From Chloroflexia bacterium (GTDB taxonomy: Bacteria > Chloroflexota > Chloroflexia > DTKN01), in contig JBDOIE010000015.1 in assembly GCA_041082245.1 (NCBI GenBank), forward strand, positions 18,589 to 82,588: a stretch of 64,000 nt of DNA, given 5' to 3'. Made by a program: the position numbers and the translations under genes. The notes beneath the pieces were generated by a model. That model had not been told where the DNA came from. It searched no databases and worked only from the letters and a program-made list of their open reading frames with translations. Below, piece after piece: positions 5,890-59,820 of this stretch (the stretch's first letter is position 1; the number at the start of each line of letters is the position of its first letter).

Positions 5890-5929
5890 ACCATCCTCCT
5901 TCGATCGGGCGATCTCCTGGCTGGCCGAG

Positions 5930-5958: not shown

Positions 5959-5962
5959 GCGT

Positions 5963-5991
5963 TTGCGCCTGCCCCGTAAACCTGGTACAAT
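5963..5991 (+). promoter_or_regulatory. Sigma70-like promoter for parA: TTGCGC, 17 bp, TACAAT (TG-extended)
   Basis: Hexamers read directly. It lies back-to-back with the PGI promoter, about 35 nt upstream of the parA ATG. Confidence 0.45.
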
Positions 5992-6026
5992 AGGGCCGAC
6001 CGGTAGCGCTGGTGGGACATCGCCCG

Positions 6027-24762: not shown

Positions 24763-24803
24763 CTTCTTGCTCCTTGTCCCAGGACTCAAGTCATTGGCAT
24801 TAT

Positions 24804-27868: not shown

Positions 27869-28896
27869 GCGGGTGCATAGAGCTCCAGCACGTCACGAAG
27901 GACAGCGGCAGCGGTGGGAAGGGGGGTCGCCTCGACGATGCTTGCGGCAAGCACACCGCAGATGTCCGTATGGTAGACGATTCCCATCTGCTCAGGACCC
28001 AAGCGGGCCAGCGGATGATGTTCGGGCAGGGTGGTGGGGCCCACAGCGAGGCGGTACCCTTGGGCGGTGCGTTCTGCGAGGGCCAGTGGGCGGATGACCT
28101 GCCCCTGCGAGCGCGCATGCTGCAACGTTTCCGGCTGGATGCCCGAGATACCCTGGATGGTGACGTCTGCCAGGGAAGCAGGGTATCGCAGGACGCTCCA
28201 GGCCAGGATGACCAGCTTTTCTGCGGCATCCCAGCCGTCGATATCCAACCTGGGGTCGGCCTCGGCATGTCCGGCCGCCTGCATTTCAGCAAGCGCCTGT
28301 TCGAATGTTGCCCCCTGCTCCAGGCGGCAAAGAACGGCGTGCGAGGTCAGGTTCAGGATGCCCTCGAGGCGTACGATGTCGGCAGCGGCAAGGTCGCGGC
28401 GCCCCAGGTTGACCGCGGGGAGCCCTCCACCGACGGTCGCACTGAAACGCATCCGCGCGCCGGAGCGGGCAGCGAGCTCCAGAAGGTGCGGGAATGCGAG
28501 CACCAGGGGCGACTTGTTCGCGGTGACGACATCCATGCCTCGGGAAAGCGCGGCTTGCATGCATCCCAGGCCGGGCTGGCCGGTCTGGAGGTTGGCCGGG
28601 GAGGCTTCGACCAGCAGGTCAGCCGCGATGGTGCGCACGATCGGTTCTGCCGGCATATCGGCGTGCCCGACACCAGGAATCTGGCCAACGCTGCTGCCTG
28701 CGCGCTTCTGTTGGAGGACCCTTTCCAGGGCGATCCCACAGGGATCGTACGCGGCGCCACCCCGGTCCGCACACCCAACGAGCACGAGCTCCAGCCCGTA
28801 CCGTTCCCGGAGCAGGTCACGCTTTTCAGAAACGATCTCGAGAAACCGCCGGCCGACCTGCCCTATACCGTTCAGGAAGAACCGCACAACACGCAT
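27865..28896 (-). CDS. Homoserine dehydrogenase-like NAD(P)-binding oxidoreductase (no ACT domain)
   Basis: N-terminal Rossmann motif (FLNGIGQVGRRFLE) and ANKSPL / EGILNLTSH motifs reminiscent of Hom. 343 aa. Confidence 0.5.
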   Translation of the reverse strand: MRVVRFFLNGIGQVGRRFLEIVSEKRDLLRERYGLELVLVGCADRGGAAYDPCGIALERVLQQKRAGSSVGQIPGVGHADMPAEPIVRTIAADLLVEASPANLQTGQPGLGCMQAALSRGMDVVTANKSPLVLAFPHLLELAARSGARMRFSATVGGGLPAVNLGRRDLAAADIVRLEGILNLTSHAVLCRLEQGATFEQALAEMQAAGHAEADPRLDIDGWDAAEKLVILAWSVLRYPASLADVTIQGISGIQPETLQHARSQGQVIRPLALAERTAQGYRLAVGPTTLPEHHPLARLGPEQMGIVYHTDICGVLAASIVEATPLPTAAAVLRDVLELYAPA

Positions 28897-28946: not shown

Positions 28947-29243
28947 GTGCCGCAGACCCTGCGCGTCGAGATTGTAGAGGTGCAAGGCAATTGCCCCGTC
29001 TACCGGGGCGGCGAGTCTTTCTACATCGAGGCCGGGTATCGGCTGAAAGCACCGGAGCCCGTTTGCCTCCACGGAATCGTCAGCATTCTTCCGTACTACG
29101 TTGCACTGGCAAGAGGCATTCCCGCGCGGGACCTGGGCCTTGCGGGCCCTGACGGGGCCGCCTACGTGCAATGCCTCGACCCTCACGCCCTTACCGGCGG
29201 GGGCACCGTGACTTTTCGGCTGACGACCGAGGCCGCACCGTAG
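28947..29243 (+). CDS. Small conserved hypothetical protein (98 aa, 3 Cys)
   Basis: GTG start preceded by AAAGGAGG with a 5-nt spacer. Balanced amino-acid composition. Overlaps the 3' end of the convergent 29183..31636 gene by 61 nt. Confidence 0.45.
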   Translation: MPQTLRVEIVEVQGNCPVYRGGESFYIEAGYRLKAPEPVCLHGIVSILPYYVALARGIPARDLGLAGPDGAAYVQCLDPHALTGGGTVTFRLTTEAAP

Positions 29244-31636
29244 CACAGGGCTCCCGCGGCCAGGACCGCGCCGTATCCCGCCGTGAGGGCCAGCCACTGT
29301 GCCCCGATCGCGCCCACAACCGATGCACATCCGTTCGCCGCCCAGGCCCACGGGATGAGCGATCGCCGTGTGCTGCCCAGGGCACGTATGGCGGTGGGAA
29401 AGGGAATTCCCATCCCGAAGCCCAGGGGCAGCAGAAGCAAGGTGCCGATCCCCAGGCGCGCCCAAAAGGGAAGGCCCATCGTCGCCTGGACAAGCAGCGG
29501 CAACCCTGGCACAGCGAGCGCGATCGTCGTCGCGAGCACAAGGAGCAGTCCACCGAGCCGAACCTCCCGGCCTGCGCTCCACAGGCTTCCAAGCCCGGAC
29601 CCGACGAGCAGGGCGAAGAGCACGGTCGCCGTGGCGTAGAGCGGCCGGTCGAGGTACAGGGTAAACCGCCCCAAGAGCGGAATCTCCACAGCCATAAACC
29701 CGACGCCGAGCGCTGCGAAGTAGAGCAACACCGGGCCACGGCCGGCTACCTTTTCCCGGCGGTGCAGCGCGACCGGGAGCAAGATGAGCAACCCTGACGC
29801 CCCGACCGCAAGCAGGAGCAGCACAGGCACGATCAGGAAGCCCGCTCCCCCGAACGGCTGCGCGGTCTGCCCGTACTGCGCCAGCAGCTGCGGCAACTGA
29901 CGCCACGTGAAGAACTGGTAGAAGAAAGGGCGATCGTCCTCGGCCGGTCGGACATCGGCCGGCCAGCTGCGCAGGAACGCGCGGCGGTCCGGACCCACCA
30001 GGTAGCCTCGAAACGCATCGTAATAGATGGGCCCTTCCCGCACGATGTTGTGACGGTTCGCTTCCCCACGCTGCATGCCCGGGAGCCAGACGAGGTCGAA
30101 GCGCCGTTCCGCGCAGAAGCGGCGCACAGTCTGCAGCTCCGCAGGCGTCCACGCTTCCCGCCGCGCGAGGAGCAGCAGAGTGGACCAGCTGCGCACGGCA
30201 ACGATCTGTGCCTCCGGATGCGATGTTCCTTCCCGCTCCAGGGCTTCAACGAGCGTCGTGAGTGCCCGCAGTTCCTCCGAAGGTGGCTGCTGCAACCAGC
30301 GCGTGATCGCGAGGATCCCGTCCGGGGCAAGCCGTCGTAGCGCAGCGCGGAACGACTCTACCGTGTAGCGGCTTTCTTCGACCAGACTGTAGGCGCCTGC
30401 GGTCACCACCGTCCGCTCCCCGGTCAGGCAGTAGACGATCAGGTCGAATTGCGGTCCGCACGAGGCCAGGTAGGAGCGGGCGCCCCGGTGCAACACACGT
30501 ACCTGGGGACGGGAGAAGATCCCGCCGATCTCCGAGGCCAAGTGCTCCTCGACCACTTCTGCGACCAGCGGGTCCTGCTGGATGACCACGATCTCGCGCG
30601 CTCCTTGCTCCAGTGCTTGCAGCAGGTCCAGCCCACCCATCGGCTCGATAAGCAGGGTGCGCGCCCCCGGGCGGATGTGATAGGGCAGGGAGGTCAGCAT
30701 CGCATCCAGGAAAGCGGGAGGGGCATCCGATGCGTGCACCAGGGTGAGCGGCGAAGGCTGATCGCCGTCGATCGTCAATGACATCTGCTGGGGCAACGGG
30801 CCGCTAGGCACGAGGGGCAGACCTGGGAAGGAGTGGTACGGACCACCGGCGACGACGTCCACGCGCGCGGCCGCATGCTCTTTCGAGTACACGAGGCGCG
30901 CGCCCGGGAAGAAGAGCTGCTGCACCAGGCTCTTGTGGGGGTCCATACGCGGTGTCAAAGCGGGGGGAGGGCGCAGGAGGAGGATCAGCGAACCTCCTAG
31001 CCCGGCAAGTGCGAAGAGTACCGGCCACGACCGCTTCCCCAGCGAGAAGAGTACCGCGGCGGTGGCAGCCAGAAGCGCGGCCGCCAGCGGAAGCCTCTGG
31101 CTACCCAGGAGACCGATAAGCGGAACGGCAAGCGCTGTCCCCAGGGCCGATCCGGCCAGGTTTGCACCGTACAGCCGGCCAGCGTGCTCCGGTGTAGATT
31201 CCAGCACCAGGCACACCACCAGACCCCCGCAGAGGAAGGGAAGGCCCAGCGCGAGGTAGTACAGCGTAAGGTACACGTACTGGCGGCGGTCCCAAGCCAC
31301 AGCATACAGGTCGAGCGGAAGGGCGTGAAGGATCCACAGCAGAACCACACATAGCGCGGAGAAACCGATGCTCAGTCCGACCAGGGTCTGGCGTCGCAGC
31401 GGCCGTGTGAGGCCCGGAAACGCGGCGTGGAGCGACCCCCCCGCGCCGCTCCCGAGCAATGCCAGGCTGACCACGAGGAAGGCGAAATGGTACCATTGGC
31501 ACACCGCGAGCATGCGCGTGAGCCCGACCTCGAGGAGGAGGACGCTTGCAGAAAGCAACGACAGGCCCAGGTAGAGCGCGACCACTGCCGGCTCCTGGAG
31601 ACCTTGGCTACTCCGGTTCAACCCGCGCGAGGGCAT
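29183..31636 (-). CDS. Membrane-embedded spermidine-synthase-like (class I SAM/aminopropyltransferase fold) protein. N- and C-terminal polytopic TM blocks flank the catalytic-fold domain.
   Basis: The central region (RARTLLIEPMGGLDLLQALEQGAREIVVIQQDP ... FDLIVYCLTG ... LAPDGILAI) resembles the SpdS fold, with many hydrophobic helices on both sides. Start set to the ATG at 31636 (MPSRGLNR); the ORF-track start at 31804 would overlap the upstream gene. Confidence 0.55.
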   Translation of the reverse strand: MPSRGLNRSSQGLQEPAVVALYLGLSLLSASVLLLEVGLTRMLAVCQWYHFAFLVVSLALLGSGAGGSLHAAFPGLTRPLRRQTLVGLSIGFSALCVVLLWILHALPLDLYAVAWDRRQYVYLTLYYLALGLPFLCGGLVVCLVLESTPEHAGRLYGANLAGSALGTALAVPLIGLLGSQRLPLAAALLAATAAVLFSLGKRSWPVLFALAGLGGSLILLLRPPPALTPRMDPHKSLVQQLFFPGARLVYSKEHAAARVDVVAGGPYHSFPGLPLVPSGPLPQQMSLTIDGDQPSPLTLVHASDAPPAFLDAMLTSLPYHIRPGARTLLIEPMGGLDLLQALEQGAREIVVIQQDPLVAEVVEEHLASEIGGIFSRPQVRVLHRGARSYLASCGPQFDLIVYCLTGERTVVTAGAYSLVEESRYTVESFRAALRRLAPDGILAITRWLQQPPSEELRALTTLVEALEREGTSHPEAQIVAVRSWSTLLLLARREAWTPAELQTVRRFCAERRFDLVWLPGMQRGEANRHNIVREGPIYYDAFRGYLVGPDRRAFLRSWPADVRPAEDDRPFFYQFFTWRQLPQLLAQYGQTAQPFGGAGFLIVPVLLLLAVGASGLLILLPVALHRREKVAGRGPVLLYFAALGVGFMAVEIPLLGRFTLYLDRPLYATATVLFALLVGSGLGSLWSAGREVRLGGLLLVLATTIALAVPGLPLLVQATMGLPFWARLGIGTLLLLPLGFGMGIPFPTAIRALGSTRRSLIPWAWAANGCASVVGAIGAQWLALTAGYGAVLAAGALCYGAASVVSRKVTVPPPVRA

Positions 31637-31670
31637 TGGACCCCGGAAGCGCACGGAGCGAACAGTGGGC

Positions 31671-32633
31671 TCAGAGAGCGCCGGATGCTTCTTCCTCGCG
31701 GTACCAGCGGTAGAACCGTTCCAGGCCCTCTTCCAGGCATGTGCGCGGCTCGAAACCGAGCAGCCGCCGTGCCTTGGAGATATCCGCGTGGGTAAGCGGA
31801 ACATCGCCCGGGGCAGGGGGTTCCTGCACCACGTGGGCCTTTCGTCCGACGATCTGCTCGATCAGGGCGATAAAGCCTCGCACCGTAACGGTACGGGAGT
31901 TGCCCAGGTTGATGATTTCCCAGGCGAGTTCGGCGTCCAGAGCCGCCAGTACCCCGGCGACGATGTCGTCGATGTAGGTAAAATCGCGCTGGGCGCTCCC
32001 GTCTCCGTACAGGTGGAGCGGTTCGCCGCGGTGTATCGCCTCGGTGAACCGGTATGGGGCCATATCGGGGCGACCACGCGGGCCGTACACCGTGAAGAAA
32101 CGAAGCGCTGTACACGGCAGACCATACAGGTGATGGTACGTGTAGGCGAGCAGCTCCGCAGCGCGTTTCGTTGCTGCGTAGGGAGAGATCGGGTGCAGAC
32201 ATGGGTCGTCCTCGCGGAACGGCGGGCGGCTGTCCACCCCGTAAACCGAGGAGCTGGAAGCAAGGAGGAATGCTCGCACGCCGAACCGGCGTGCCTGCTC
32301 GAGCAAAACCAGCGTCCCTCCCACGTTGACTTCCTGGAAGAGCTGTGGCTGGGCCAGCGAGTAGCGGACCCCGGCCATCGCCGCAATGTGCACAACCTTC
32401 TCCGGCCGCTCCGTTTCGAACAGAGAACGCACCGTGCTCACATCCCGGATGTCTCCTTCCCAGAGGCGAAAGTTGGAGCGCCCGAAGAGCGGGGCGATGT
32501 TGCGCCGTTTCCGCGCCGGGCTGTAGTAATCGTGAAAGTTGTCCAGACAGACCACCTCGTCGCCGCGTGCGACCAGCGCCTCGCAGACGTGCGAGCCGAT
32601 GAACCCGGCCCCTCCGGTCACAAGCACCTTCAC
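31671..32633 (-). CDS. NAD-dependent nucleotide-sugar epimerase, UDP-glucuronate 4-epimerase-like
   Basis: [15 protein letters not shown], the NFHDYY motif and YxxxK. Overlaps the UXS stop by 4 nt (ATGA). Confidence 0.7.
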
Positions 32634-35514: not shown

Positions 35515-37023
35515 GTGAGAGCTTCTCGGCTTGCCGTGCTGTTTTCCCGCGAGGCGCTCTGGACAGGGAGCCTCTTTCTCCTCTTCCTCTTCGCGCTATT
35601 GGTGCAGCCGCTCCGTTCTGCCGACTTCTGGTGGCACCTGAAGGTGGGCGAGATCGTCCTGGACGAGCACGCCGTGCCCCGCGTCGATCGCTTTTCGACC
35701 ACCATGGCTGGGCATCCGTACACCTACCAGAGCTGGTTGGCAGGGGTGTGCTTTGCGCTCCTCTACCGTCTGGGCGGCGCGGGCACGGTTGTGGTGGCCC
35801 ACGCCTTGCTCCTCAGCGCGGCTTACTCCCTCCTGTGGAGCGTCTGTCGGAAAGCCGGCGGCCACCCGCTGGTGGCGACGGCGTGCACGTTCGCGGCGAT
35901 GGTCGTTTGCGGCGGAAACTGGGGCGTCCGGCCTCAGAGCTTCTCCACCTTCCTTTTTGCGCTCTTTTTCTGGCTCTTGGTACGCCACGCGCGGGGCGAG
36001 CAGGTACCGTGGTGGCTTTTTCCTCTGGGGATGGTGGTGTGGGCGAACCTGCACGGAGGCTTCGTACTGGGTCTGGGATTGCTTGGTGCGGCGGTGGTGG
36101 GGGAAGGGATCGCGTGGTTGTTGCCAGGCCGGCCGTTCCCGATCGTTTCGGGCAAGCGCTGGACGGGGATGGTCGGAGCACTGGTCTCTTCCGTTGTTGG
36201 CACGCTGGTGAATCCGGCCGGCCTGGGAGTCTACGCGTATGTCCGCAGGATCCAGCGAAACCCGGTCATCCACGGAGCCATTGCCGAGTGGCAGCCCCCG
36301 CGTGTGGACGAGCCTGTGGGAGCGATCTTCTTTGGCTCTTTGTTCCTGCTGTTCCTTGTCCTTCTTTACCGGGGGTACCGACCGCATCCGAGGGAAGCGC
36401 TGTGGTTGCTCGGCACCGGGTGGTTGGCCCTCGGTAGCGTCCGAAGCATCCTCTGGTACACGTTTCCGATGGCGCTGCTGCTGGCCCAGTCGGTGGGAAC
36501 CGTTCGTCTGCCCCGGATACGAAAGCCGCGCGTCGGCGAGGCGGTGGCGAACGGTGCGGTGCTCGTGCTCCTGCTGGCGCTCGTGGTCGCGGCGCTTCCG
36601 CCGTTCAAAGGACGATTGCCCCTTGGGGCGGACCTGCGGGGGACCATCGCCCCGGACACCCCAGTACGTGCCACAGACTATATCCTGAGCCACGGCCTCG
36701 CTGGGCCGATTTTCCACCGGATGGAGTACGGGGACTACCTGCTCTGGCGCTGTTATCCAGAACGGCGGGTCTTTGTCGATCCCCGTATCGAGCTGTATCC
36801 GCCTGCGATCTGGGAGGCGTACGAAGCCATCTCACAGGGCGGGCCGCAGGCCGCGAATCTGCTCGAGCAGTACGGCATCCGCGTCCTGCTCCTGGACCGG
36901 GTCCGCCAGGCGCGTCTGCTGGAGTGGGCGCGTAGCTCCGGCCTGTGGCATCTGTGTTTTGAGGACGAGGCAGAGGGGACCGCAGTGCTCGCACAGAGCT
37001 GTCCCGGAGACAAGGTTCAGTGA
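35515..37023 (+). CDS. Polytopic membrane protein with a C-terminal soluble domain (GT-C-type glycosyltransferase-like)
   Basis: 11 or more TM helices, then a roughly 150-aa hydrophilic C-terminus. GTG start. Family uncertain. Confidence 0.4.
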   Translation: MRASRLAVLFSREALWTGSLFLLFLFALLVQPLRSADFWWHLKVGEIVLDEHAVPRVDRFSTTMAGHPYTYQSWLAGVCFALLYRLGGAGTVVVAHALLLSAAYSLLWSVCRKAGGHPLVATACTFAAMVVCGGNWGVRPQSFSTFLFALFFWLLVRHARGEQVPWWLFPLGMVVWANLHGGFVLGLGLLGAAVVGEGIAWLLPGRPFPIVSGKRWTGMVGALVSSVVGTLVNPAGLGVYAYVRRIQRNPVIHGAIAEWQPPRVDEPVGAIFFGSLFLLFLVLLYRGYRPHPREALWLLGTGWLALGSVRSILWYTFPMALLLAQSVGTVRLPRIRKPRVGEAVANGAVLVLLLALVVAALPPFKGRLPLGADLRGTIAPDTPVRATDYILSHGLAGPIFHRMEYGDYLLWRCYPERRVFVDPRIELYPPAIWEAYEAISQGGPQAANLLEQYGIRVLLLDRVRQARLLEWARSSGLWHLCFEDEAEGTAVLAQSCPGDKVQ

Positions 37024-39350: not shown

Positions 39351-42101
<2,751 letters not shown>

Positions 42102-42152
42102 GGTCCGGAGGGAAGACTTCTTGAAACGCCAGTGGGTGCGGAGGAGCGGACG

Positions 42153-45137
42153 ATGGAACTGTTTCGTCTCGTACTGGTCCAACTGAACCCTACAGTGGGT
42201 GACTTGCAGGGCAACGCGCAGAAGGTGGTTGCTGCGCTCGAGGAGGCCCGCGGAGTCGGAGCCGACCTTGTGATCTTTCCCGAACTCGTCCTGACCGGCT
42301 ATCCGCCGGAAGACCTTCTCCTGATGCCCTCGTTCGTGCAGGAGAACCTGGCGTGCCTCCAGCAGGTTGCCGGGGCGACGTCCGGGATCACAGCGCTCGT
42401 GGGCTTTGTTGATTGCCGCGACGACGAGATCTACAACGCCGCAGCGGTCCTGCACGATGGCGAAGTCGCGGCTGTCTATCACAAGCTCTATCTGCCCAAC
42501 TACGGCGTGTTTGATGAATACCGCTACTTCCACCCCGGAGGCCGCCCCCTGGTGTTCCGGCAGGGCCCTGCCACGGTAGGGGTAAGCATCTGCGAGGATA
42601 TCTGGTACCCGGCCGGCCCGGTGGAGGCGGAAGCGCTGGCGGGAGCGCGGTTGATCGTGAACATCTCGGCTTCGCCCTATCATATGGGCAAGGGGCGCGG
42701 GCGGGAGCGGATGCTCGCTACCCGGGCGGCCGACAACGTGGCCTATGTGGCCTTCTGCAACCTGGTCGGCGGCCAGGACGAGCTCGTCTTCGACGGGGGG
42801 AGCGTCGTCTTCGATCCTCGGGGAGAACTCGTGGCGCGGGCACGCTATTTCGAGGAAGACCGCCTGGTCGTCGATCTGGATCTCGGGACCGTCTTGCGCC
42901 AGCGCCTGCACGATCCTCGCCGGCGCCAGCTCCACTCCGCGGCTGCCGATGGTGTGGAGGAGCTGCGGCTCACATCGCTCGAGCCGGGAGCCCGGGCACC
43001 GGTCCCTCCGCGGATCGAGCCGCTGCCGGAACCGGATGCCGAAGTGTACCGCGCCCTGGTCCTTGGCACGCAGGACTATGTCCGGAAAAACGGTTTCCGG
43101 CAGGTGGTCGTGGGCCTTTCGGGCGGGGTGGATTCGTCGCTTGTGGCGACCATCGCGGTGGACGCACTGGGCCCTGAGAACGTGATCGGCGTCTTTATGC
43201 CCAGCCGCTACTCTTCCACCGAAAGCCGCGAGGATGCCCGTGCGGTGGCCGACCTGCTGGGCATCCGCTTCCTGGAAATCCCGATCGATGAGATCTTTTC
43301 TGCTTACATCGCAGCGCTGGCTGCTCCCTTTGCGGGGTTGGCGCAGGATGTGACCGAGGAGAACATCCAGGCGCGCATCCGGGGTAACCTGCTGATGGCC
43401 CTTTCGAACAAGTTCGGCTGGCTGGTGCTGACGACGGGCAACAAGAGCGAACTCGCAACTGGGTACTGCACCCTCTACGGGGACATGGCCGGAGGTTTTG
43501 CGGTGCTGAAAGATGTACCGAAAACCCTTGTCTACCGCCTTGCCCGTTACCGCAACGCCCGATCTCTCGCGATTCCGGATCGTGTCCTGACAAAGCCCCC
43601 CTCGGCCGAACTACGCCCCGACCAGCGCGACGAAGACACCCTGGGACCCTATGCTCTGCTCGACCCCATCCTTCAAGCGTACGTCGAGGAGGATCGGGGA
43701 CTCGCGGAGATCGTCGCGCTTGGATACAGGGAGGAGGATGTGCGCCGGATCCTGCGGATGGTCGATCGCTCGGAGTACAAGCGTCGCCAGGCGCCTCCAG
43801 GGATCAAGATCACGCCACGTGCCTTTGGCCGCGATCGGCGGCTCCCGATTACGCACCGCTTTCGGCCCTCGGCACCCCGGAGCGGGGGGGCGTGCCCTTT
43901 TCCCGGGCACGCCCCCGCTGTGTCCCTTTCAGATCACGCCCTGCTCCCGGAGGCGGGCGATTTCCTCGGGCACGTAGCCGAGGTACGTTTGCAAGATTTC
44001 CTCCGTATGTTGCCCGAGGAGCGGGGGTGGGTTCTCCAGCCGCACCGGGGTGCGGGAAAGTTTCAGGGGCGAGCCCGCAACCCGGATGCGGCCGGCCGTA
44101 GGGTGAGGCAGTTCGACAACCATCCCCCTCGCGAGGACCTGGGGGTCGGAGAACACCTCGTCGATGTGGAGGATGGGAGCGCACGGGATGTTTGCAGCGA
44201 GGAGTGCCTCTTCCCACTCGCGTGCCGTGCGGGTGCGAAACCGTTCCTGCAGGATCGGGATGAGGATATCGCGGTTCTGCACGCGGAGAGGGTTCGTTGC
44301 GAACCTCGGGTCCTCGGCGAGATCGTCCCATCCGCCGACCGCGCACAGATCGCGCCACTGGCGGTCGTTGCCCACTCCCACCGCGATCCAGCCGTCGGAC
44401 GTGGGGAACGGCTCGTACGGCACGATGTTGGGGTGGGCATTCCCATAGCGTTTCGGGCGCTCGCCCGAGATCAGGTAGTTGCTGCCCACGTTGATCAGCC
44501 AGGCCACGTGGGAATCCAGGAGCGCGATGTCGATGTACTGTCCTTCCCCGCTCCTTTCCCGTTCCTGCAGCGCGGCGAGGATGGCGATCGTCGCGTACAA
44601 GCCTGCCGTCACGTCGACGATGGCAAGGCCGACCTTCATAGGCGGCCCTTCGACCGGGCCGGTGATGCTCATGATCCCGCCCTGGGCCTGGATGATGAAA
44701 TCGTAGCCGGGGCGGTCACGGTAGGGCCCGGTTTGGCCGTAACCCGTGATCGCACAGTAGATCAAACGCGGGTTCCGCGTGCGCAGGGCCTCATACCCGA
44801 TTCCCCATTCGTCCATCGTGCCGGGGTAAAAGTTCTCCACGAGCACGTCGGCCCGCTCGGCCAGCCGCTGGACGATTTCCCGGCCTTCCCGGGTTTTCAG
44901 GTTCAGGGTGATGCTCTTCTTCCCACGGTTCACGCACAGGTAGTAGGCAGCTTCCCCTCCGGCAAATGGGGGTCCCCACTGACGGGTATCGTCCCCCCGT
45001 CCGGGGATTTCGACCTTGAGCACCTCAGCTCCGAGGTCGGCAAGCATCATGGTGCAGTACGGGCCCGCCAGCACCCGGGAGAGATCGAGCACCAGCAGGC
45101 CCTCGAGGGGAGCGCGTGTGCCTCCGGGCATCCATAA
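42153..45137 (+). CDS. nadE: Glutamine-dependent NAD+ synthetase (CN-hydrolase plus NAD-synthetase domains). Homology ends near 43865, but the frame has no stop codon until 45137.
   Basis: MELFRLVLVQLNPTVGD N-terminus, CN-hydrolase and SGGVDSS motifs, and a conserved C-terminus (YKRRQAPPGIKITPRAFGRDRRLPITHRFR). The 3' boundary is unreliable: the extension is antisense to the CoA-transferase gene. Confidence 0.6.
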   Translation: MELFRLVLVQLNPTVGDLQGNAQKVVAALEEARGVGADLVIFPELVLTGYPPEDLLLMPSFVQENLACLQQVAGATSGITALVGFVDCRDDEIYNAAAVLHDGEVAAVYHKLYLPNYGVFDEYRYFHPGGRPLVFRQGPATVGVSICEDIWYPAGPVEAEALAGARLIVNISASPYHMGKGRGRERMLATRAADNVAYVAFCNLVGGQDELVFDGGSVVFDPRGELVARARYFEEDRLVVDLDLGTVLRQRLHDPRRRQLHSAAADGVEELRLTSLEPGARAPVPPRIEPLPEPDAEVYRALVLGTQDYVRKNGFRQVVVGLSGGVDSSLVATIAVDALGPENVIGVFMPSRYSSTESREDARAVADLLGIRFLEIPIDEIFSAYIAALAAPFAGLAQDVTEENIQARIRGNLLMALSNKFGWLVLTTGNKSELATGYCTLYGDMAGGFAVLKDVPKTLVYRLARYRNARSLAIPDRVLTKPPSAELRPDQRDEDTLGPYALLDPILQAYVEEDRGLAEIVALGYREEDVRRILRMVDRSEYKRRQAPPGIKITPRAFGRDRRLPITHRFRPSAPRSGGACPFPGHAPAVSLSDHALLPEAGDFLGHVAEVRLQDFLRMLPEERGWVLQPHRGAGKFQGRARNPDAAGRRVRQFDNHPPREDLGVGEHLVDVEDGSARDVCSEECLFPLACRAGAKPFLQDRDEDIAVLHAERVRCEPRVLGEIVPSADRAQIAPLAVVAHSHRDPAVGRGERLVRHDVGVGIPIAFRALARDQVVAAHVDQPGHVGIQERDVDVLSFPAPFPFLQRGEDGDRRVQACRHVDDGKADLHRRPFDRAGDAHDPALGLDDEIVAGAVTVGPGLAVTRDRTVDQTRVPRAQGLIPDSPFVHRAGVKVLHEHVGPLGQPLDDFPAFPGFQVQGDALLPTVHAQVVGSFPSGKWGSPLTGIVPPSGDFDLEHLSSEVGKHHGAVRARQHPGEIEHQQALEGSACASGHP
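43886..43916. terminator. 12-bp GC-rich inverted repeat (GGGGGCGTGCCC / GGGCACGCCCCC, TTTTCCC loop) between the nadE conserved end and the CoA-transferase stop. Putative bidirectional terminator. Its left arm is part of a G7 homopolymer.
   Basis: Read directly from the sequence. Confidence 0.35.
43929..45131 (-). CDS. Family III CoA-transferase (CaiB/BaiF family)
   Basis: LEGLLVLDLSRVLAGPYCTMMLADLGAEVLKVE N-terminus is canonical. 400 aa. AAAGGAGG RBS. Confidence 0.8.
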   Translation of the reverse strand: MPGGTRAPLEGLLVLDLSRVLAGPYCTMMLADLGAEVLKVEIPGRGDDTRQWGPPFAGGEAAYYLCVNRGKKSITLNLKTREGREIVQRLAERADVLVENFYPGTMDEWGIGYEALRTRNPRLIYCAITGYGQTGPYRDRPGYDFIIQAQGGIMSITGPVEGPPMKVGLAIVDVTAGLYATIAILAALQERERSGEGQYIDIALLDSHVAWLINVGSNYLISGERPKRYGNAHPNIVPYEPFPTSDGWIAVGVGNDRQWRDLCAVGGWDDLAEDPRFATNPLRVQNRDILIPILQERFRTRTAREWEEALLAANIPCAPILHIDEVFSDPQVLARGMVVELPHPTAGRIRVAGSPLKLSRTPVRLENPPPLLGQHTEEILQTYLGYVPEEIARLREQGVI

Positions 45138-45150
45138 CCTCCTTTTGCCC

Positions 45151-46434
45151 TCAGCTGTTGATGACCCCCGCCAGGCTATGCTCGAAGATGGAAAGAGCCT
45201 CGTCGAGCTCCGGATCGCCGATGATCAGAGGTGGCGTCCAGCGAAGGACATTGTCGTCGGTGCCGCAAGTAGCCAGAAGGAGTCCAGCCTCCAGGCAAGC
45301 CCGCTGCGTATCCCGGGTGCGATCCTTGTCCGGCGTGCGCCCCCCGGGAACGACAAACTCGACGCCGACCATCAGCCCCTGGCCGCGCACCTCCCCGATG
45401 GCGGGGTAGCGCTGCTGCAGCGCCCGCAGCCGGCTCCGCAGCTTCTCCCCCATTATAGCACTATTTTTCACCAGCTGTTCTTCCTCCAGCACGCGCAGGG
45501 CCACCTCGGTTGCGCTGCAGGCGACAGGAGAAGGAACAGGCACGTCCCAGGCTCCTTCTTTGTGCGGGTCCTCGAGAAGTCCCCGACGTGCGGCGACAGC
45601 CCCGAGCGGCAGGCCTGTGGACAGGATCAGGATGTCCGGAACGACCCCCGAATGCTCCAAAGCAAAGAAGCGCCCGCTCCGGCCAAAGCCGGTGCATCTT
45701 TCGTCGAAAAGGAGCAGGATGCCGAATTCGCGGCAGATGTCGCGCAGGCCACGGAGGAATGGGGCTGGAGCGACCACACATCCTCCCTCCCCCAGGATCG
45801 GTTCGACGAGGATGGCGGCTGTCTCCTGTGGCACAGTCTGGCTCTTCAAGAGGAAGCGTACCTGCTCCAGCGGCCAGCCGCAGCAGCTGCCAGCACTGTA
45901 GCGCTCGGGCGCCGCCTCCGCCTTCGGGCAACGGTAGCAATACGGGTAGGGCGCGACCAGGGTCCTGCACGAAAGGGAAGGGTTACCGGTGCATTGCCAG
46001 GCTTTGGCGGTGGACAGGTTCACAGTGGCTATCGTGTGGCCGTGGAAACCGCGCTGGAAGACGATCAGGTTCGGGCGGCCCGTGACGTGGCGCGCGAGCC
46101 GGATCGCCAGCTCGACCGCCTCGCTCTCGCTACCTGTCAGGCAAATGTCAGGGAGCTCGGCGGGCACGACATCGCGCAGTACGCTGACCAACCGGAGCAT
46201 CGGCTCGTGGGGCGCAACGTTCCCCGCCAGGTGGAACAGGCGGCCGGCCTGAGCGCGGATGGCTTCGACGACCCGGGGATGGTTGTGCCCCGTATTCGAT
46301 ACCCCCACACTTGTGGCAAAATCCAGATATCGGCGCCCGCACTCATCCCATAGAAAGGCGTGTTCCCCTCGGACAACAGCGTGTCCAAGGAGAAACTGCG
46401 GTGATGCGTACATTTCGGTTCTACGATCGTTCAT
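45151..46434 (-). CDS. Class III PLP-dependent aminotransferase (GABA/ornithine/omega-aminotransferase family)
   Basis: Class III fold pattern (YLDFATSVGVSNTGHNHPRVVEA ... LIFDERCTGFGRSG). Confidence 0.7.
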   Translation of the reverse strand: MNDRRTEMYASPQFLLGHAVVRGEHAFLWDECGRRYLDFATSVGVSNTGHNHPRVVEAIRAQAGRLFHLAGNVAPHEPMLRLVSVLRDVVPAELPDICLTGSESEAVELAIRLARHVTGRPNLIVFQRGFHGHTIATVNLSTAKAWQCTGNPSLSCRTLVAPYPYCYRCPKAEAAPERYSAGSCCGWPLEQVRFLLKSQTVPQETAAILVEPILGEGGCVVAPAPFLRGLRDICREFGILLLFDERCTGFGRSGRFFALEHSGVVPDILILSTGLPLGAVAARRGLLEDPHKEGAWDVPVPSPVACSATEVALRVLEEEQLVKNSAIMGEKLRSRLRALQQRYPAIGEVRGQGLMVGVEFVVPGGRTPDKDRTRDTQRACLEAGLLLATCGTDDNVLRWTPPLIIGDPELDEALSIFEHSLAGVINS

Positions 46435-53319: not shown

Positions 53320-56300
53320 ATGAGGGACCTGCCCCTCCTGAGCACCAAGTTCCTGGTTCCGCGGCTCCAGCCGGACCATCTGCCGCGAGAACGGCTCGTG
53401 CGGCAGCTTGGGGTAGCCTTGTACAAGCGTCTTGTGCTACTCTCAGCGCCGCCCGGATACGGGAAAACGACCCTGCTGGCGCTGTTTGCGCGGCAAACGG
53501 AGATTCCCCTGATCTGGTATCAGCTCGATGCGACGGACAACGATCCGATCCTGTTCCTGCACTCCTTGGTCACCGGGTTTCGGATGCGCTTTCCCGGCTT
53601 TGCCCCTGCGACCACAGCATTGCTGGAGGATCATCGCCAGCAGCCCGACCGGCTGCTGGCCGTGTTGCTGAACGAGGTGACAGGCGAGATCAGACCGGAC
53701 GTGCTTCTGGTACTGGAGGATTATCACGCGATCCGGCATCCTGATGTCCACCGGCTGGTACAGTTCTTGCTGGATCACCAGCCGCCGCAGCTGCACCTGT
53801 TGCTTTCCACCCGGGAGGAGCCTCCTCTATCCCTGGCCGGCCTACGCGCAGCCGGCGAGCTCATCGAGTTGCGTGCTGCCGACTTGCGGTTCACAACCGA
53901 GGAGATTTCGCAACTTACGGCATCCCTGGAACTGGGCGAAACACTCGTCGATCTTCTCGCAGAACGCACTGAAGGGTGGCCTGCGGGTCTGCAGCTTGCG
54001 CTCGCGGCGCTGGCACAGAGGCCGGGAGTGCCGCCTCAAGAGGTCGTGCGGCGCTTCCGGGGGAACCACCGCTTCGTTTTCGATTACCTGGCCGAAGAGG
54101 TTTTCGAACGCCAGCCTCGCGAGGTACAGGATTTCCTGTTGCGATCTTCCATCCTGGAGCAGATGAGCGCGCCGAGCTGCAACGACATCCTCGGGATCGA
54201 CAACGCGAAAGTGCTCCTTGAAGAGCTGGAGAAACGGAACCTTTTCCTGCAGGGCCTGGATGAAGAGCGGCGCTGGTACCGATACCATCAGCTGTTTCGA
54301 GATTTCCTTCTGGATCGCCTCTACCGGCAGGGCGAAGAAGAACCGCTTCGGTTGCACGCGCGGGCTGGCGACTACTACGCCGAACAGGGAATGTGGGATC
54401 TGGCCGCCGAGCACTACGTCGCGGCACGGAGCGTTCCAGGATTGAGCCGGGCGGTCCGCGCGCTTGCTCCGTGCTGTCTGCAGAGTGGCCGCCTGGAGAC
54501 CCTATACCGTTACCTTTTGGCCTTACCGCCTCGGGTCTTCGAAGAGGAGCCGGACTTGCTTCTGTACCAGGGGCAGGTGTTCCGCCACTGGGGCAGGGTC
54601 GAGGAAGCGGTCGCTTGTTACGAAAGAGCACGTTCCCTTTATGAGGTGCGCGACGAACGGAATGGGCTGTCGCGCGCGCTGAGCGAGCTGGCTTACATCG
54701 CGCTCTCGCGTGGCGAATACCGGGATGCCCAGCGGCTGGCGCAGCAGGCTCTGGGTGCCGCAGGACCGCACGACCATCTGGAACGATCCTCGGCACTGAT
54801 GGCGCTGGCGCGTAGCACTGGTTTCCTGGAAGGGATGGAACGCGGGTGCAAGCTCGGGGAAGAGGCACTTCGCGAGGCGGAGGTCGCTGATCCCCCGCTG
54901 CCTCGGACGGCCCGGGCGCGCCTGCTGCTTTCTCAGGCCCAGTTATGTTGGTGGTACGGGGACCCTTTCGCTACTGTGGGCCATTGTCAGGCGGCGCTGG
55001 ACGCGGAGCCTGAGCCGGTTTCGCCTATTGCCTGCCGGGCCTTTGTCATTATGGTCAGCCCCCATCTCTATTGGGGCAACTTTTCGTTAGCCCGTGACCT
55101 TGCACAAAAGGGCCTGGCGTTGAGCGAGCAACTCCAGTACACCGAGTGGCGGCCGATGGCACATGCGGCGCTGGGCATGGTGCTTTCTCGCCAGGGCCAG
55201 CTGGCTCTAGGGGAGAAGCACCTCCGTGAAGCGATCTCGCTGGCCCGTCGCCTGGGTGCGGAAAGCTACGCGCAGCTGATGGCGGCCGGGTACCTTGCAG
55301 CGAACCTGAGCCAGCAGGGCCGGCTGGCGGAAGCTCGCCGCTGCTGCGAAGAGGTCCTGCATCTATACGAGGCCAACCAGGAGACCTACGAATACTCGGT
55401 GTGCCGGAGCGTGCTGGGCGATGTGTTGATGGATATGGGGGATCTGGACACGGCGTGGGAGTATTTCCTGAGCCTGCGGCAGATCGATGAGGCGCGACAG
55501 TTCCGTCTGCCGTTGGCGATGGTCCATTTTGCTCTGGGCTACCTGCATCTCTTGGCCGGCCGTCGGGACCCGGCGCTGGAGGCCATCCGGGATTCGATGG
55601 AGATCATACGCCAGACAAACACGGTCGTCCTCTATCTCGACCAGGGGCAACGCGCAGCTGCCGTGTGTCGAGCGGCACTCGAAGCTGGGATCTGCCCCGA
55701 TCTCGCGCGCCGGATCCTTGGGATGCTTGGCGCCGATGGGCAGCTGGCCGTGGAGCCTTGCTATGAGGCCCGTACATCCACCGAGCCGGTCGACCGGCGG
55801 AGGCCCTTCGAGATCGTAACGCTTGGCGGGTTCCGCGTCTTCTACGAGGGGCGTGAGATCGGGAAAGAAGCCGGGTTGGTGGGGCGCCCCAGGGAGATGC
55901 TGGCCTATTTCATCACCCATCGGTACGAGCGCCTTCCCCTCGACCGGATCGTGGAAGACCTTTGGCCCGGGTGCGCTCCGGAACAGGGACAAGCCGTTTT
56001 TCACACCACGCTGCACCGGCTGCGCCGTGCTTTGAGCCGCGTCGCCGGCCCAGGAACCTATGTCCGTCACGATGGCGGAGAGTATCAGCTGGAGGCCGAG
56101 GCATTTCGCGTGGACGTCGACACGTTCGAGGCCTGTCTGCAGCGTGCGCGGAGCAGCGTCGGCACCAGTGCACAACGCGCCTGCGAAGAGGCAGCCCAGC
56201 GCTATGGGGGAGCGTACCTGGTTAACCTGTACGCAGACTGGTGCGAAGCCGAACGCCGGAGGCTCACCTCGGCCTATCTGGAAGTGCTCCGCACGCTTGT

Positions 56301-56577
56301 CGCGGCGTATACCGCTGCCGGGGACTATACGCGTGCCGTTTGGGCATGCGAGCGAATGCTCGAGGTCGATCCGCTGCTGGAAGAGGTGCACTGCGAGCTG
56401 ATGCGGCTCTGGCACCGGATGGGGAATCGTGCGGCGGTCATCCGCCAGTACGAGCGCCTCGTCCAGCTGCTCGCGCAGGAGGTGTGTGCAAGCCCCTTGC
56501 CGGAAACGCAGCGCCTCTTGCGGGAGCTGCTGGCTCGGCCAGCAGGCGCCATCCTTGACAATCCGGGGCCTTTCTGA
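53320..56577 (+). CDS. Large ATP-dependent transcriptional regulator: MalT-like STAND NTPase N-terminus, TPR-like repeats, C-terminal OmpR-type winged helix plus BTAD (SARP-type) module
   Basis: N-terminus (LLSTKFLVPRLQPDHLPRERLVRQL ... LLSAPPGYGKTTLLALF, Walker B LVLEDYH) resembles MalT. The C-terminus (FEIVTLGGFRVFYEGREIG ... MLAYFITHRYERLPLDRIVEDLWP ... then a BTAD helical repeat) resembles SARP/AfsR DNA-binding domains. Confidence 0.6.
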   Translation: MRDLPLLSTKFLVPRLQPDHLPRERLVRQLGVALYKRLVLLSAPPGYGKTTLLALFARQTEIPLIWYQLDATDNDPILFLHSLVTGFRMRFPGFAPATTALLEDHRQQPDRLLAVLLNEVTGEIRPDVLLVLEDYHAIRHPDVHRLVQFLLDHQPPQLHLLLSTREEPPLSLAGLRAAGELIELRAADLRFTTEEISQLTASLELGETLVDLLAERTEGWPAGLQLALAALAQRPGVPPQEVVRRFRGNHRFVFDYLAEEVFERQPREVQDFLLRSSILEQMSAPSCNDILGIDNAKVLLEELEKRNLFLQGLDEERRWYRYHQLFRDFLLDRLYRQGEEEPLRLHARAGDYYAEQGMWDLAAEHYVAARSVPGLSRAVRALAPCCLQSGRLETLYRYLLALPPRVFEEEPDLLLYQGQVFRHWGRVEEAVACYERARSLYEVRDERNGLSRALSELAYIALSRGEYRDAQRLAQQALGAAGPHDHLERSSALMALARSTGFLEGMERGCKLGEEALREAEVADPPLPRTARARLLLSQAQLCWWYGDPFATVGHCQAALDAEPEPVSPIACRAFVIMVSPHLYWGNFSLARDLAQKGLALSEQLQYTEWRPMAHAALGMVLSRQGQLALGEKHLREAISLARRLGAESYAQLMAAGYLAANLSQQGRLAEARRCCEEVLHLYEANQETYEYSVCRSVLGDVLMDMGDLDTAWEYFLSLRQIDEARQFRLPLAMVHFALGYLHLLAGRRDPALEAIRDSMEIIRQTNTVVLYLDQGQRAAAVCRAALEAGICPDLARRILGMLGADGQLAVEPCYEARTSTEPVDRRRPFEIVTLGGFRVFYEGREIGKEAGLVGRPREMLAYFITHRYERLPLDRIVEDLWPGCAPEQGQAVFHTTLHRLRRALSRVAGPGTYVRHDGGEYQLEAEAFRVDVDTFEACLQRARSSVGTSAQRACEEAAQRYGGAYLVNLYADWCEAERRRLTSAYLEVLRTLVAAYTAAGDYTRAVWACERMLEVDPLLEEVHCELMRLWHRMGNRAAVIRQYERLVQLLAQEVCASPLPETQRLLRELLARPAGAILDNPGPF

Positions 56578-56583
56578 TAGTAT
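56555..56583 (+). promoter_or_regulatory. Sigma70-like promoter: TTGACA, 17 bp, TAGTAT. The -35 lies inside the last codons of the regulator gene, and the -10 starts right after its stop. It would give a roughly 160-nt leader for the protease gene.
   Basis: Read directly. Confidence 0.4.
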
Positions 56584-56746
56584 CACTTGTGTAGACATTA
56601 TCTCCCTTTCTCCATCTGTATCCCGGCATCCCGAACCCGGGTGTGCGTTGCACAGCCCGAGCGTATTTGCCTACAGAGAGGAGGTGGTCGCCGCTAGCTG
56701 TTCCTCCCGCTTCCCGTGGATCCAGGCTGAGAGCAAGGAGGTTACG

Positions 56747-59700
56747 ATGAACTGGAGCCGAATCCTGCGGCTACTCGGTGTACTGGTGCTCCTCGTGATC
56801 GGCCTAGCGGCGCTTCCTTCGGTCGCGACCCCGAACAGCAAGATCGAGCCGGCACTCCTGGAGAAACTCGCCGCGGAACGGACCGCTGATTTCATCGTCC
56901 GCTTTGGCGAACAGGCGGACCTCAGTCCTGCCTATCAGATGGGCTGGAAAGAGCGCGGCGAGTTCGTTGTGCGCGCGCTGACCGAAGTGGCCGAGCGCAG
57001 CCAGGCGACGGCAAAGACCTACCTGGACGGGCGCGGTATCGCGTACCGGACGTTTATCGCGGGCAACGAACTATACGTCTGGTCGGGCGATCTCGCCGCC
57101 GCCAACCGTCTGGCCGAGTTTCCCGAAGTGGCTTTCATCCGGGCTACCCGCACGTACTACGTGGATCCGATCATCTCCAACGAGACAAACGCCGCGCCGC
57201 ACGCGCTTGACTGGGGCATCTTGGATACAGGAGCAGATGACTTTTGGGCCGCTTTCGGCGTCCAGGGCGACGGCATCGTAGTTGCGAACATCGACACCGG
57301 CGTCCAGTGGAACCACCCCGCCCTCGACCAGGCCTACAAGTGCGCTTCGAACCCGACCAGCCCTGCCTGCTGGTACGATCCTTCCAGCATCTGCGGGGGT
57401 ACCGTGTGCGACAACAACGGCCACGGCACGCACACGATGGGCACGATGGTCGGGGACGACGATCCCTCGCTAGCCTATCAGGTCGGGATGGCGCCGAACG
57501 CCCTGTGGATCGCCTGCAAGGGGTGCGAGACGAACTCGTGCTCGGATTTCGCCCTGAACGCCTGCGCGGACTGGATCCTGCAACCCGATGGCAACCCGGC
57601 GAACCGCCCGCACGTGGTGAACAACTCCTGGGGCGGGGGTGGGTGCGACACCTGGTACCAGGCGAAGGTACAGGCCTGGCGCGCGGCCGGCATCTTCCCC
57701 GCCTTCTCGGCCGGGAACTCGGGTTCTGGCTGCGGCACGCTGGGTAGCCCCGGGGACTATCAGGAGTCGTTTGCCAGCGCGGCACACGATGTCTCCCGCA
57801 ACATTGCCTCCTTCTCGAGCCGGGGTCCTTCCTGCTTCGGGCACGATCCGTACACGAAGCCGAACATCTCGGCCCCGGGTGTAAACGTCTGCTCCTCGGT
57901 GCCCACAAACGCCTGGAGCTGCACCTACAGCGGCACCTCGATGGCCAGCCCGCACTCCGCGGGGGCGGTGGCGCTGCTCTGGTCGTGCAACCCGAGCCTG
58001 ATCGGCCAGATCGACCTGACCTTCGAGGCCCTCCAGAACACCGCGGATACGCCGCCGGCCGGAAACTGCAATGCGCCTCCGGACGGTGAGGGGAACTATA
58101 CCTACGGCTACGGATACCTCAACGTGTACCAGGCCGGCCTCCAGTACTGCGGCGGTGTCGCGCTGGGCTACCTGCAGGGCCACGTGTACGATGCCGACAC
58201 CGGCAGCCCGATCGGGGGAGCCAACGTGATCGCGGTACCGGGTGGCCAGATCCTCGCGGTCACGGATCCCACGGGCTACTACACGATGTCCCTGGTCCCC
58301 GGGGTCTACGACGTGACGGCCTCGAAGAACGGCTACGACTCGCAGACGGTCCAGGACATCCACATCTACACCGACACTGTGACCACCCAGGACTTCCAGC
58401 TGCACTTCCTTGGCCAGTGGACGTTGCTTCCGGACAACCCGTTCGACTACACCCGCTTCGACTGCGTCTGGTTCGACGACGGGACGGGACCCTCGGCCTA
58501 CAACCAGAAGGTCTACTGCCTCGGCGGGCGCACCGGCTCCACGACCGAGGATCCCTCTATCTGGCGCTTCGATCCGGTAACCCAGGTCTGGACGGATACC
58601 GGGCACGACGTCTACGAGGATGTCTCCAACTACACCGCCAACCTGCTGCGGGACGAGAACTATGACACCCAAGGGCTAGCGATCTACATCGTCGGTGGGT
58701 ACGACGCGGAGGGCGGCGGCTATATGCCCATTGTGCAGCGTTACTACCCCAAGACCGGGCTTGCGCAGAACGTCCCCGACGACCCCTGGCCGGTAATGGT
58801 CGGCGGGTACAACACCATCCCCGGAGCGTGCGTCAGCACCTCGGATCTGACCAAGATCTACTGCTTCGGCGCCTGGGAGAGCAACGCTGCGCCCTATTTC
58901 TCCGCCCAGACCTGGGAGTATGACCCGACCCGGCCCGACACCCAGCGCTGGCAGCAGATCACCACGGCCAACCTGAGCGTGCCACGGGGTTACATCCTGG
59001 CCGCGGTCCAGGGCACCAAGATCTATGCCATAGGCGGTGACTACCAGTACACGGGCGGCGATCTGGTGCCCACGGACATCGTCGAGGTGCTCGATGTGAC
59101 CAACCTGGCCGCGGGCTGGTCGACCGTGGCCTCCATGCCCATCCCGCTGTCCCAGGGGCGTGCCTTCGGCCTCGATGTCGACACGCTGGGAGTGAACGTC
59201 CCCGTGGGCAAGATTTACACCGCGGGCGGCGGCGACTGGCCGAACGAGACCACCGAGGCGATGGAGTACGACGTGGCGTCCGACACCTGGAATCAGGCCT
59301 TCCCCGATCTGAACATCGCCCGCCGCAACCACGCTGGTGTATACATCCCGCTGTGCACGCCCGATGATCCGACCGACCTGATGCCTTCGCTCTTGGTGGT
59401 CGGAGGCCGGAGCGGCTCGGATGTCCCGCCCTACCCCCAGCCGGAGTACTTCCCGTTCTCCTGCTCGATCTGTGAGCCGGTCGAGATCCTGTCGGTCATT
59501 ACCACGACCGAAGGGTGCGTCGTCTCCTTCAGCGCGGAGGTAACGGGTACCGAGCCGATCGACTTCCTGTGGGACTTTGGGCCCTTCGGGACGACCACGG
59601 AGACGAACCCGATCGTGGACTTCCAGGCGAGCGGCACCTACGCCTACACGTTGACCGTCTCCAACTGCGGCGGTACCGACAGCTGGAGCGGTACAGTCAC

Positions 59701-59767
59701 GGTCGAGTGTGCGCCGCCGATGTGGGAGATCTACCTGCCTGTCGTCTTCAAAGCCTACGAACCTTAG
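56747..59767 (+). CDS. Secreted multi-domain subtilisin-like serine protease (S8): signal peptide, I9-like propeptide, S8 catalytic domain, CarbopepD-reg-like beta-sandwich, Kelch-type beta-propeller-like region and a C-terminal PKD-like domain
   Basis: AAGGAGG RBS. MNWSRILRLLGVLVLLVIGLAALPSVA signal. Catalytic triad motifs (VANIDTGV, HGTHTMGT, GTSMASPHSAG). Repeated ...YxxGG... blades. C-terminal WDFGPFGTTTE...YTLTVSN PKD-like motif. Confidence 0.85.
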   Translation: MNWSRILRLLGVLVLLVIGLAALPSVATPNSKIEPALLEKLAAERTADFIVRFGEQADLSPAYQMGWKERGEFVVRALTEVAERSQATAKTYLDGRGIAYRTFIAGNELYVWSGDLAAANRLAEFPEVAFIRATRTYYVDPIISNETNAAPHALDWGILDTGADDFWAAFGVQGDGIVVANIDTGVQWNHPALDQAYKCASNPTSPACWYDPSSICGGTVCDNNGHGTHTMGTMVGDDDPSLAYQVGMAPNALWIACKGCETNSCSDFALNACADWILQPDGNPANRPHVVNNSWGGGGCDTWYQAKVQAWRAAGIFPAFSAGNSGSGCGTLGSPGDYQESFASAAHDVSRNIASFSSRGPSCFGHDPYTKPNISAPGVNVCSSVPTNAWSCTYSGTSMASPHSAGAVALLWSCNPSLIGQIDLTFEALQNTADTPPAGNCNAPPDGEGNYTYGYGYLNVYQAGLQYCGGVALGYLQGHVYDADTGSPIGGANVIAVPGGQILAVTDPTGYYTMSLVPGVYDVTASKNGYDSQTVQDIHIYTDTVTTQDFQLHFLGQWTLLPDNPFDYTRFDCVWFDDGTGPSAYNQKVYCLGGRTGSTTEDPSIWRFDPVTQVWTDTGHDVYEDVSNYTANLLRDENYDTQGLAIYIVGGYDAEGGGYMPIVQRYYPKTGLAQNVPDDPWPVMVGGYNTIPGACVSTSDLTKIYCFGAWESNAAPYFSAQTWEYDPTRPDTQRWQQITTANLSVPRGYILAAVQGTKIYAIGGDYQYTGGDLVPTDIVEVLDVTNLAAGWSTVASMPIPLSQGRAFGLDVDTLGVNVPVGKIYTAGGGDWPNETTEAMEYDVASDTWNQAFPDLNIARRNHAGVYIPLCTPDDPTDLMPSLLVVGGRSGSDVPPYPQPEYFPFSCSICEPVEILSVITTTEGCVVSFSAEVTGTEPIDFLWDFGPFGTTTETNPIVDFQASGTYAYTLTVSNCGGTDSWSGTVTVECAPPMWEIYLPVVFKAYEP

Positions 59768-59787: not shown

Positions 59788-59820
59788 GGGGCCCGGGGAA
59801 TGCCCGGGCCCCGTTTTCTT
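59788..59820. terminator. Intrinsic terminator: 10-bp stem GGGGCCCGGG / CCCGGGCCCC (GAATG loop) followed by GTTTTCTT. Bidirectional between the protease gene and the convergent minus-strand gene.
   Basis: Read directly. It is 20 nt after the protease stop. The T-run overlaps the stop of the minus-strand gene. Confidence 0.7.

Follow-up and report, generated by a model that had tools for sequence, protein, structure and literature searches.

A probable stop-codon substitution joins nadE of a Chloroflexia bacterium to a chance-open frame antisense to a CoA-transferase gene

Introduction

Why does the nadE gene of a Chloroflexia bacterium have no stop codon where its protein should end? The window analyzed here is a stretch of 64,000 nucleotides from contig JBDOIE010000015.1 of the NCBI GenBank assembly GCA_041082245.1 (positions 18,589 to 82,588 of the forward strand). 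In it, nadE, which encodes a glutamine-dependent NAD+ synthetase, forms part of one open reading frame (ORF) of 1001 aa at 42132..45137 on the plus strand of a program-made ORF list. A first-pass annotation, made from the letters alone, had pointed out that this frame stays open past the conserved C-terminus of NadE as far as 45137, and our analysis confirms it. Three causes had been offered: an insertion or deletion in a run of seven G residues (G7) behind the gene, a natural C-terminal extension, or some non-canonical means of translation termination. Comparison with relatives points instead to the stop codon itself, which lies upstream of the G7 run and has very probably been replaced by a serine codon.

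Results

The nadE gene and its relatives

The enzyme encoded by nadE is complete. The NCBIfam model NF010588 (NAD+ synthase equivalog / PRK13981) scores 743.3 bits against the 1001-aa ORF, where the cutoff is 479, and positions 3-544 of its 546 align to ORF residues 9-579. The end of NadE homology had been placed at about 43865, which is the last base of R578 in ITHRFR (43863..43865). NF010588 puts it one codon further on, at Pro579 (43866..43868), and this proline is the last residue in common with the closest orthologs. Both parts of the two-domain NadE architecture were found with Pfam: an N-terminal glutaminase (CN_hydrolase, PF00795, residues 15-254) and a C-terminal NAD synthase (NAD_synthase, PF02540, residues 306-554). 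The SGGxDS ATP-pyrophosphatase motif reads LSGGVDSS. The orthologs use ATG 42153 as the nadE start; the ORF list begins the frame 7 codons earlier, at GTG 42132. The coordinates of these and the other features are collected in Table 1.

The relatives used for comparison are Chloroflexia or Chloroflexota metagenome-assembled genomes (MAGs). Locus L001 (Chloroflexia MAG GCA_049969155.1, contig JBMFPK010000019.1) carries the NadE protein P0002, and loci L002-L004 carry P0003. The ratio of nonsynonymous to synonymous divergence (dN/dS) of nadE against L001 is 0.086 overall and 0.043 over the last 150 codons. Because of these ratios, the gene reads as intact and selectively constrained and not as a decaying pseudogene. 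The GC content of NadE proper at the first, second and third codon positions (GC1/GC2/GC3) is 0.73/0.44/0.77.

In a protein search with the long nadE product, the identical protein P0001 was followed by NadE proteins at 84% identity (P0002, 572 aa, with the record name 'MAG: NAD+ synthase [Chloroflexia bacterium]'), at 83% (P0003, 573 aa) and, in many cases, at 66-74%. Every match other than the product itself covered only 55-58% of the query. P0002 ends in RLPITHRYRP and P0003 in RLPITQRYSP, and both begin and end at the positions of nadE proper. A stop had been expected within a few codons of ITHRFR, and this is where the orthologs have it: in 121 of the 121 fetched, 4-13 residues follow the RR[LV]P[ILV]T motif, compared with 427 in the window ORF. 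The closest solved structure, 4f4h_A (565 aa), aligned to 5 residues short of its end, at PITSRF. A NadE ends a few residues after RRLPIT; the window ORF does not, and the fault lies with its stop codon and not with the enzyme domains.

The gene order around nadE is common to the window and L001-L004. It comprises genes for an ammonium transporter, a glycoside hydrolase of family GH1, a major facilitator superfamily (MFS) protein and NadE, then a convergent coenzyme A (CoA) transferase gene and genes for a class III aminotransferase, a CN-hydrolase and Opp/Dpp ABC proteins.

When the 3' ends of nadE were aligned at the DNA level (alignment A1), the coding part contained no gaps, and the stop codons of the orthologs fell on a sense codon of the window. 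That codon, TCG, becomes TAG by one substitution, at its middle base 43870. Across 572 codons from ATG 42153, nadE is colinear with its L001 ortholog, with no insertion or deletion, and the distance from the nadE stop position to the stop of the CoA-transferase gene is 57 nt in the window and in L001. Since the coding alignment is ungapped, the 572 codons are colinear and the spacers are of equal length, the stop codon was in all likelihood substituted in place to TCG, 13 nt upstream of the G7 run. The first-pass annotation had named an ortholog alignment as the deciding comparison, with a stop just after ITHRFR in the relatives and a 1-nt difference in the G run as the sign of a simple indel. 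The former part holds, as the relatives stop right after ITHR[YF]RP. The latter does not: the difference is a substitution inside the stop codon.

Table 1. Features of the nadE region, aligned nadE ends, and ORFs of the window lacking a Pfam family
Feature	Position	Strand	Details
nadE proper, glutamine-dependent NAD+ synthetase	42153..43868	+	572 codons, ATG (MELFRL...) to Pro
Probable lost nadE stop, TCG (Ser)	43869..43871	+	aligns to TAG (L001), TGA (L002-L004)
Read-through 'shadow' frame	43869..45137	+	422 sense codons and TAA (45135..45137); codon-aligned antisense to CoA-transferase
G7 homopolymer	43884..43890	+	in 5' arm of hairpin; downstream of lost stop
GC-rich hairpin in 57-nt spacer between convergent nadE and CoA-transferase	43879..43925	unstranded	
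Class III CoA-transferase, real gene of the overlapped stretch	43929..45131	-	400 aa; PF02515; synteny in L001-L004
Last codons of nadE, window			...CGC TTT CGG CCC TCG (DNA alignment A1)
Last codons of nadE, L001			...CGC TAT CGT CCG TAG (DNA alignment A1)
Last codons of nadE, L002-L004			...CGC TAC AGC CCC TGA (DNA alignment A1)
ORFs without a Pfam family	10397..12511, 14045..15736, 15882..18170, 35515..37023	+	gene-like codon-position GC
ORFs without a Pfam family	29183..31804, 59819..60664	-	gene-like codon-position GC

The spacer

The G7 run and the 12-bp GC hairpin that had been noted between the two genes are both present. The perfect 12-bp stem pairs 43886..43897 with 43905..43916 and sits within the larger hairpin of Table 1, whose 3' arm has five C residues (C5) opposite the G7 of the 5' arm. 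The predicted energy of the hairpin is -37.8 kcal/mol on the plus strand (z = -3.3 compared to shuffled sequences) and -33.5 kcal/mol on the minus strand. L001 (-39.4 kcal/mol, z = -6.4) and L002 (-28.9 kcal/mol) have hairpins of different sequence at this position. There is no U-tract on either strand, and a scan of 43500..45500 for canonical terminators and promoters found nothing. Judging from its position and its conservation as a structure, the hairpin is probably a 3'-end or terminator stem-loop shared by the two convergent genes.

The antisense frame

The gene on the opposite strand is well supported. The Pfam family PF02515 (CoA_transf_3) matches it from 1 to 366 of 366 positions with E = 1.9e-142. 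All NCBIfam equivalogs scored below their cutoffs against it, and no substrate was assigned. It shares 92.8% aa identity with its L001 ortholog, with a dN/dS of 0.036, and its sense-strand GC1/GC2/GC3 is 0.68/0.46/0.82. The nadE frame had been described as lying exactly antisense to this 400-aa class III CoA-transferase, and it does: the two frames are in exact codon register (offset 0), and the Pfam match is full length.

A codon-aligned antisense frame meets a stop only where the sense codon is TTA, CTA or TCA. The window CoA-transferase gene contains none of them. The nadE frame stays open for 422 codons because it is in register with a GC-rich gene that uses no TTA, CTA or TCA. These three codons account for 93 of 16,796 codons (0.55%) in a rough set of 33 gene-like window ORFs, among which are the 1001-aa ORF and one or more shadow ORFs. 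From this frequency, the probability that none occurs in 400 codons is 0.11. The three codons are likewise missing from five other ORFs of the set, namely four genes confirmed by Pfam, among them 23689..24789 and 27865..28896, and one shadow ORF (53842..54414). The length of the open frame is not beyond chance. The earlier suggestion that the frame owes its length to high-GC codon bias is borne out by these values.

The same arrangement is found in the nearest relative. The L001 CoA-transferase gene is also free of TTA, CTA and TCA and has the same register to its nadE; L001 is therefore one point mutation away from the same ORF of about 1000 aa. In L002-L004, the codon-aligned antisense frame of the CoA-transferase gene contains 3 stops, and nadE is in another register to that frame. 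As a side observation, over 5717..6979 of that locus the frame of the L001 nadE is open after its TAG through the spacer and the entire CoA-transferase gene, with no backup stop.

Long antisense ORFs are a known property of genomes with 60-70% GC (bioRxiv 10.1101/2021.02.09.430400), and others were seen in the window. A 747-aa shadow ORF at 40692..42935 on the minus strand, in this sequence of 64.7% GC, covers the opposite strand of the MFS gene and of the first half of nadE. The 1085-aa ORF at 53320..56577 on the plus strand is a real gene for an AAA_16 / TPR / BTAD-type regulator. Two minus-strand ORFs inside it, one of 411 aa (55363..56598) and one of 190 aa (53842..54414), have no Pfam match and look like shadow ORFs. 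A simple GC3 filter at first took one minus-strand shadow ORF inside this regulator gene for a gene.

The part of the nadE frame that follows the enzyme shows no sign of being coding sequence. Beyond ORF residue 579, Pfam and NCBIfam gave no domain. In the protein search, no homolog covered the tail, and the 120 closest NadE proteins all lack a comparable one. Its GC1/GC2/GC3 is 0.82/0.48/0.68, inverted relative to real genes, a composition that reads as the signature of an antisense strand. Against L001, synonymous divergence (dS) is 1.10 for the CoA-transferase gene and 1.09 for nadE. As the two are equal, no second coding constraint is visible on the CoA-transferase gene. These comparisons make it highly probable that the tail is not a conserved coding region, and that the 1001-aa 'protein' is a stop-loss read-through into a chance shadow ORF with no evolved extension.

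The allele in the deposited record

The identical 994-aa product, P0001, is found on a public NCBI contig of 145,350 bp and forms a singleton cluster. Because it is there, the altered codon belongs to the deposited record and not to the cutting-out of the window. The entry for P0001 names 'ncbi' as the source but, in contrast to that of P0002, carries neither accession nor name; the record behind it may lack annotation or handle the gene in another way. The protein collection searched has no entry identical to the CoA-transferase product, which would fit a gene caller that dropped this gene in favor of the long nadE ORF.

A second assembly of the same species was found in none of the collections searched, whether by protein search, exact look-ups of the 994-aa and CoA-transferase products or exact DNA patterns. 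The exact patterns, taken around the stop (with NN at the variable bases) and from the upstream coding sequence, had 0 matches in genome_contigs and metagenome_contigs. A protein-based scan of genome_contigs gave, among the matches listed, only relatives at 72% identity or less and nothing more on the stop. When about 40 ORFs of the window were compared with Pfam, all matches were full length, with no sign of frameshifts or broken genes. Since these neighboring genes are full length and without frameshifts, the assembly is not error-prone, which modestly favors a real variant.

An alternative genetic code was also considered and rejected, as TCG is not known to serve as a stop in bacteria under any code and the neighboring genes end normally.

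Other ORFs of the window

The six ORFs listed without a Pfam family in Table 1 (281-873 aa) had no match at E <= 1e-5. The ORF at 56429..59767 on the plus strand encodes a 1112-aa multidomain protein with a subtilase S8 domain, a carboxypeptidase-regulatory-like domain, a Kelch beta-propeller and PKD. Compared to its neighbors, its GC1 is unusually low (0.58) and its GC3 is high (0.84).

Discussion

The cause favored by the first-pass annotation was an indel in the G7 run, by sequencing error or phase variation, that would have moved nadE out of the frame holding its stop. The run does follow the end of homology by 13 nt, and the hairpin arms are unequal, with G7 on one side and C5 on the other. 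However, TCG stands at the position of the ortholog stops, which precedes the run, and the spacer has the same length of 57 nt as in L001. With one G more or fewer, the first stop would come at 43975 or 44099, 36 or 77 codons too late and unlike the ends of the orthologs, and the roughly 40 neighboring genes have no homopolymer frameshifts. We see next to no chance that an indel opened the frame, and reject the G7 run as the cause. Another possible explanation is that the tail is translated as a real C-terminal extension of NadE, or as a nascent antisense gene that arose by overprinting and is fused to it. The 422 open codons, the 994-aa product reported by the gene caller behind the protein database and the translated long antisense ORFs reported in GC-rich Pseudomonas (bioRxiv 10.1101/2021.02.09.430400) could be taken in this sense. 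Nevertheless, an extension that is found in none of the 120 closest NadE proteins, has no domain and is covered by no homolog is unconserved, and its openness is expected by chance with a probability of about 0.11. In L002-L004, the matching antisense frame carries its 3 stops and nadE is in a different register. The synonymous divergence of the CoA-transferase gene is not lowered, and the codon-position GC of the tail is like that of an antisense strand. We consider a translated extension or overprinted gene very improbable.

The hairpin raises a further possibility, namely that nadE is a programmed non-stop gene, whose transcripts end or are cleaved at the hairpin so that NadE output is set by ribosome rescue. 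The hairpin is strong, conserved in position and only 10 nt after the lost stop, and there is a precedent in E. coli arfA, which is regulated by hairpin cleavage and trans-translation (PMC3985003). In contrast, the stop-less state of nadE is unconserved: all 121 orthologs terminate normally, and in the relatives a normal stop precedes the same kind of hairpin. A 3' structure shared by two convergent genes is the simpler account of it. ARAGORN and Rfam found no tmRNA gene in the window, a result that is uninformative for the rest of the genome. Programming of this kind has a very small probability, and the non-canonical termination proposed earlier finds no support in what can be read from the DNA. 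There is also a slim chance that TCG is real and fixed in the lineage, either with a nadE mRNA that ends at the hairpin as a natural non-stop message or with read-through as the first step of an overprinted gene. In the former case, NadE yield would hang on ribosome rescue (tmRNA tagging versus ArfB-type release), and NAD synthesis would be coupled to trans-translation capacity.

Our preferred reading remains a substituted stop codon followed by a chance-open shadow frame, and we lean slightly toward the C at 43870 being a real, recent or strain-level allele rather than a consensus error. Several points weigh against this reading. Because no second assembly of the same species was found, a real recent allele and a consensus error are inseparable here. 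With a dS of about 1.1 to the nearest relative, the ancestral stop (TAG, TGA or TAA) is not inferable, and a single substitution suffices only from TAG. The usual essentiality of NadE also speaks against a real stop-loss that has become fixed, except where the cell tolerates the tail or has another NAD synthetase encoded outside the window; this favors an error or a transient allele. Also, the fate of the transcript and protein described below is entirely inferred, the hairpin it invokes has no U-tract, and the terminator scan was empty.

In the preferred reading, a base substitution turned the nadE stop into TCG, and what follows is noncoding spacer and then the strand opposite the CoA-transferase gene. 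If the allele is real, ribosomes would move beyond codon 572 and run into the spacer hairpin 10 nt further on. Any transcript ending there would be a non-stop mRNA, to be resolved by ribosome rescue. Rescue of non-stop mRNAs by tmRNA-SmpB or by ArfB (YaeJ) has been described (PMC3985003; PMC3061065). By the former route, NadE would be tagged and degraded by proteolysis; by ArfB-type release, it would be freed with a tail of roughly 15-20 residues. NadE yield would fall in both cases. Read-through transcripts, which would lie antisense to the CoA-transferase operon, would yield a NadE fusion carrying a junk tail. Such a stop-loss allele should be deleterious and short-lived.

The locus resembles a stop-loss mutation or a base-call error in a stop codon, as a sense codon one substitution from TAG stands in place of the ortholog stop, with an intact gene upstream of it and no conservation of the downstream sequence as protein. 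Unlike the usual stop-loss, the read-through is unusually long (422 codons), since the 57-nt spacer holds no backup stop and the frame then enters a stop-free antisense register. The tail is also like the shadow ORFs of GC-rich genomes in the -1, codon-aligned frame, where stops need the rare codons TTA, CTA and TCA; the 411- and 747-aa ORFs are examples in the window. Those shadow ORFs stand alone, whereas this one continues the reading frame of a real gene upstream. The olg1 and olg2 genes of Pseudomonas aeruginosa are a further comparison: these long ORFs, too, lie directly antisense to annotated genes, and the genome has 60-70% GC. They are longer than composition predicts, conserved in a clade, constrain the synonymous sites of the mother gene, and have expression evidence (bioRxiv 10.1101/2021.02.09.430400). 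In each sequence-based respect examined (length, conservation and synonymous constraint), the tail of the window ORF differs from them. In arfA, as in the window nadE, no stop codon precedes the strong hairpin that the ORF enters (PMC3985003). Unlike arfA, the stop-less state of the window gene is conserved in no ortholog, and nothing points to cleavage or regulation.

The locus combines an ordinary stop-codon substitution, or a base error, with a shadow frame that is open by chance. This kind of event is already known, and nothing points to new biology. Its practical effect is on annotation. The single base at 43870 makes gene callers emit a 'NadE' of 994-1001 aa, and one such call, P0001 with 994 aa, is among the entries of the protein collection searched. 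The record should give nadE as 42153..43868, encoding an enzyme of 572 aa and marked as having its stop disrupted, unless a check of the reads leads to a correction, and it should list the CoA-transferase gene at 43929..45131 on the minus strand. More generally, where the GC content of a genome is about 65%, a single mutation can be all that separates two convergent genes from an artefactual fusion of kilobase length if their spacer has no backup stop, and L001 is in exactly that state.

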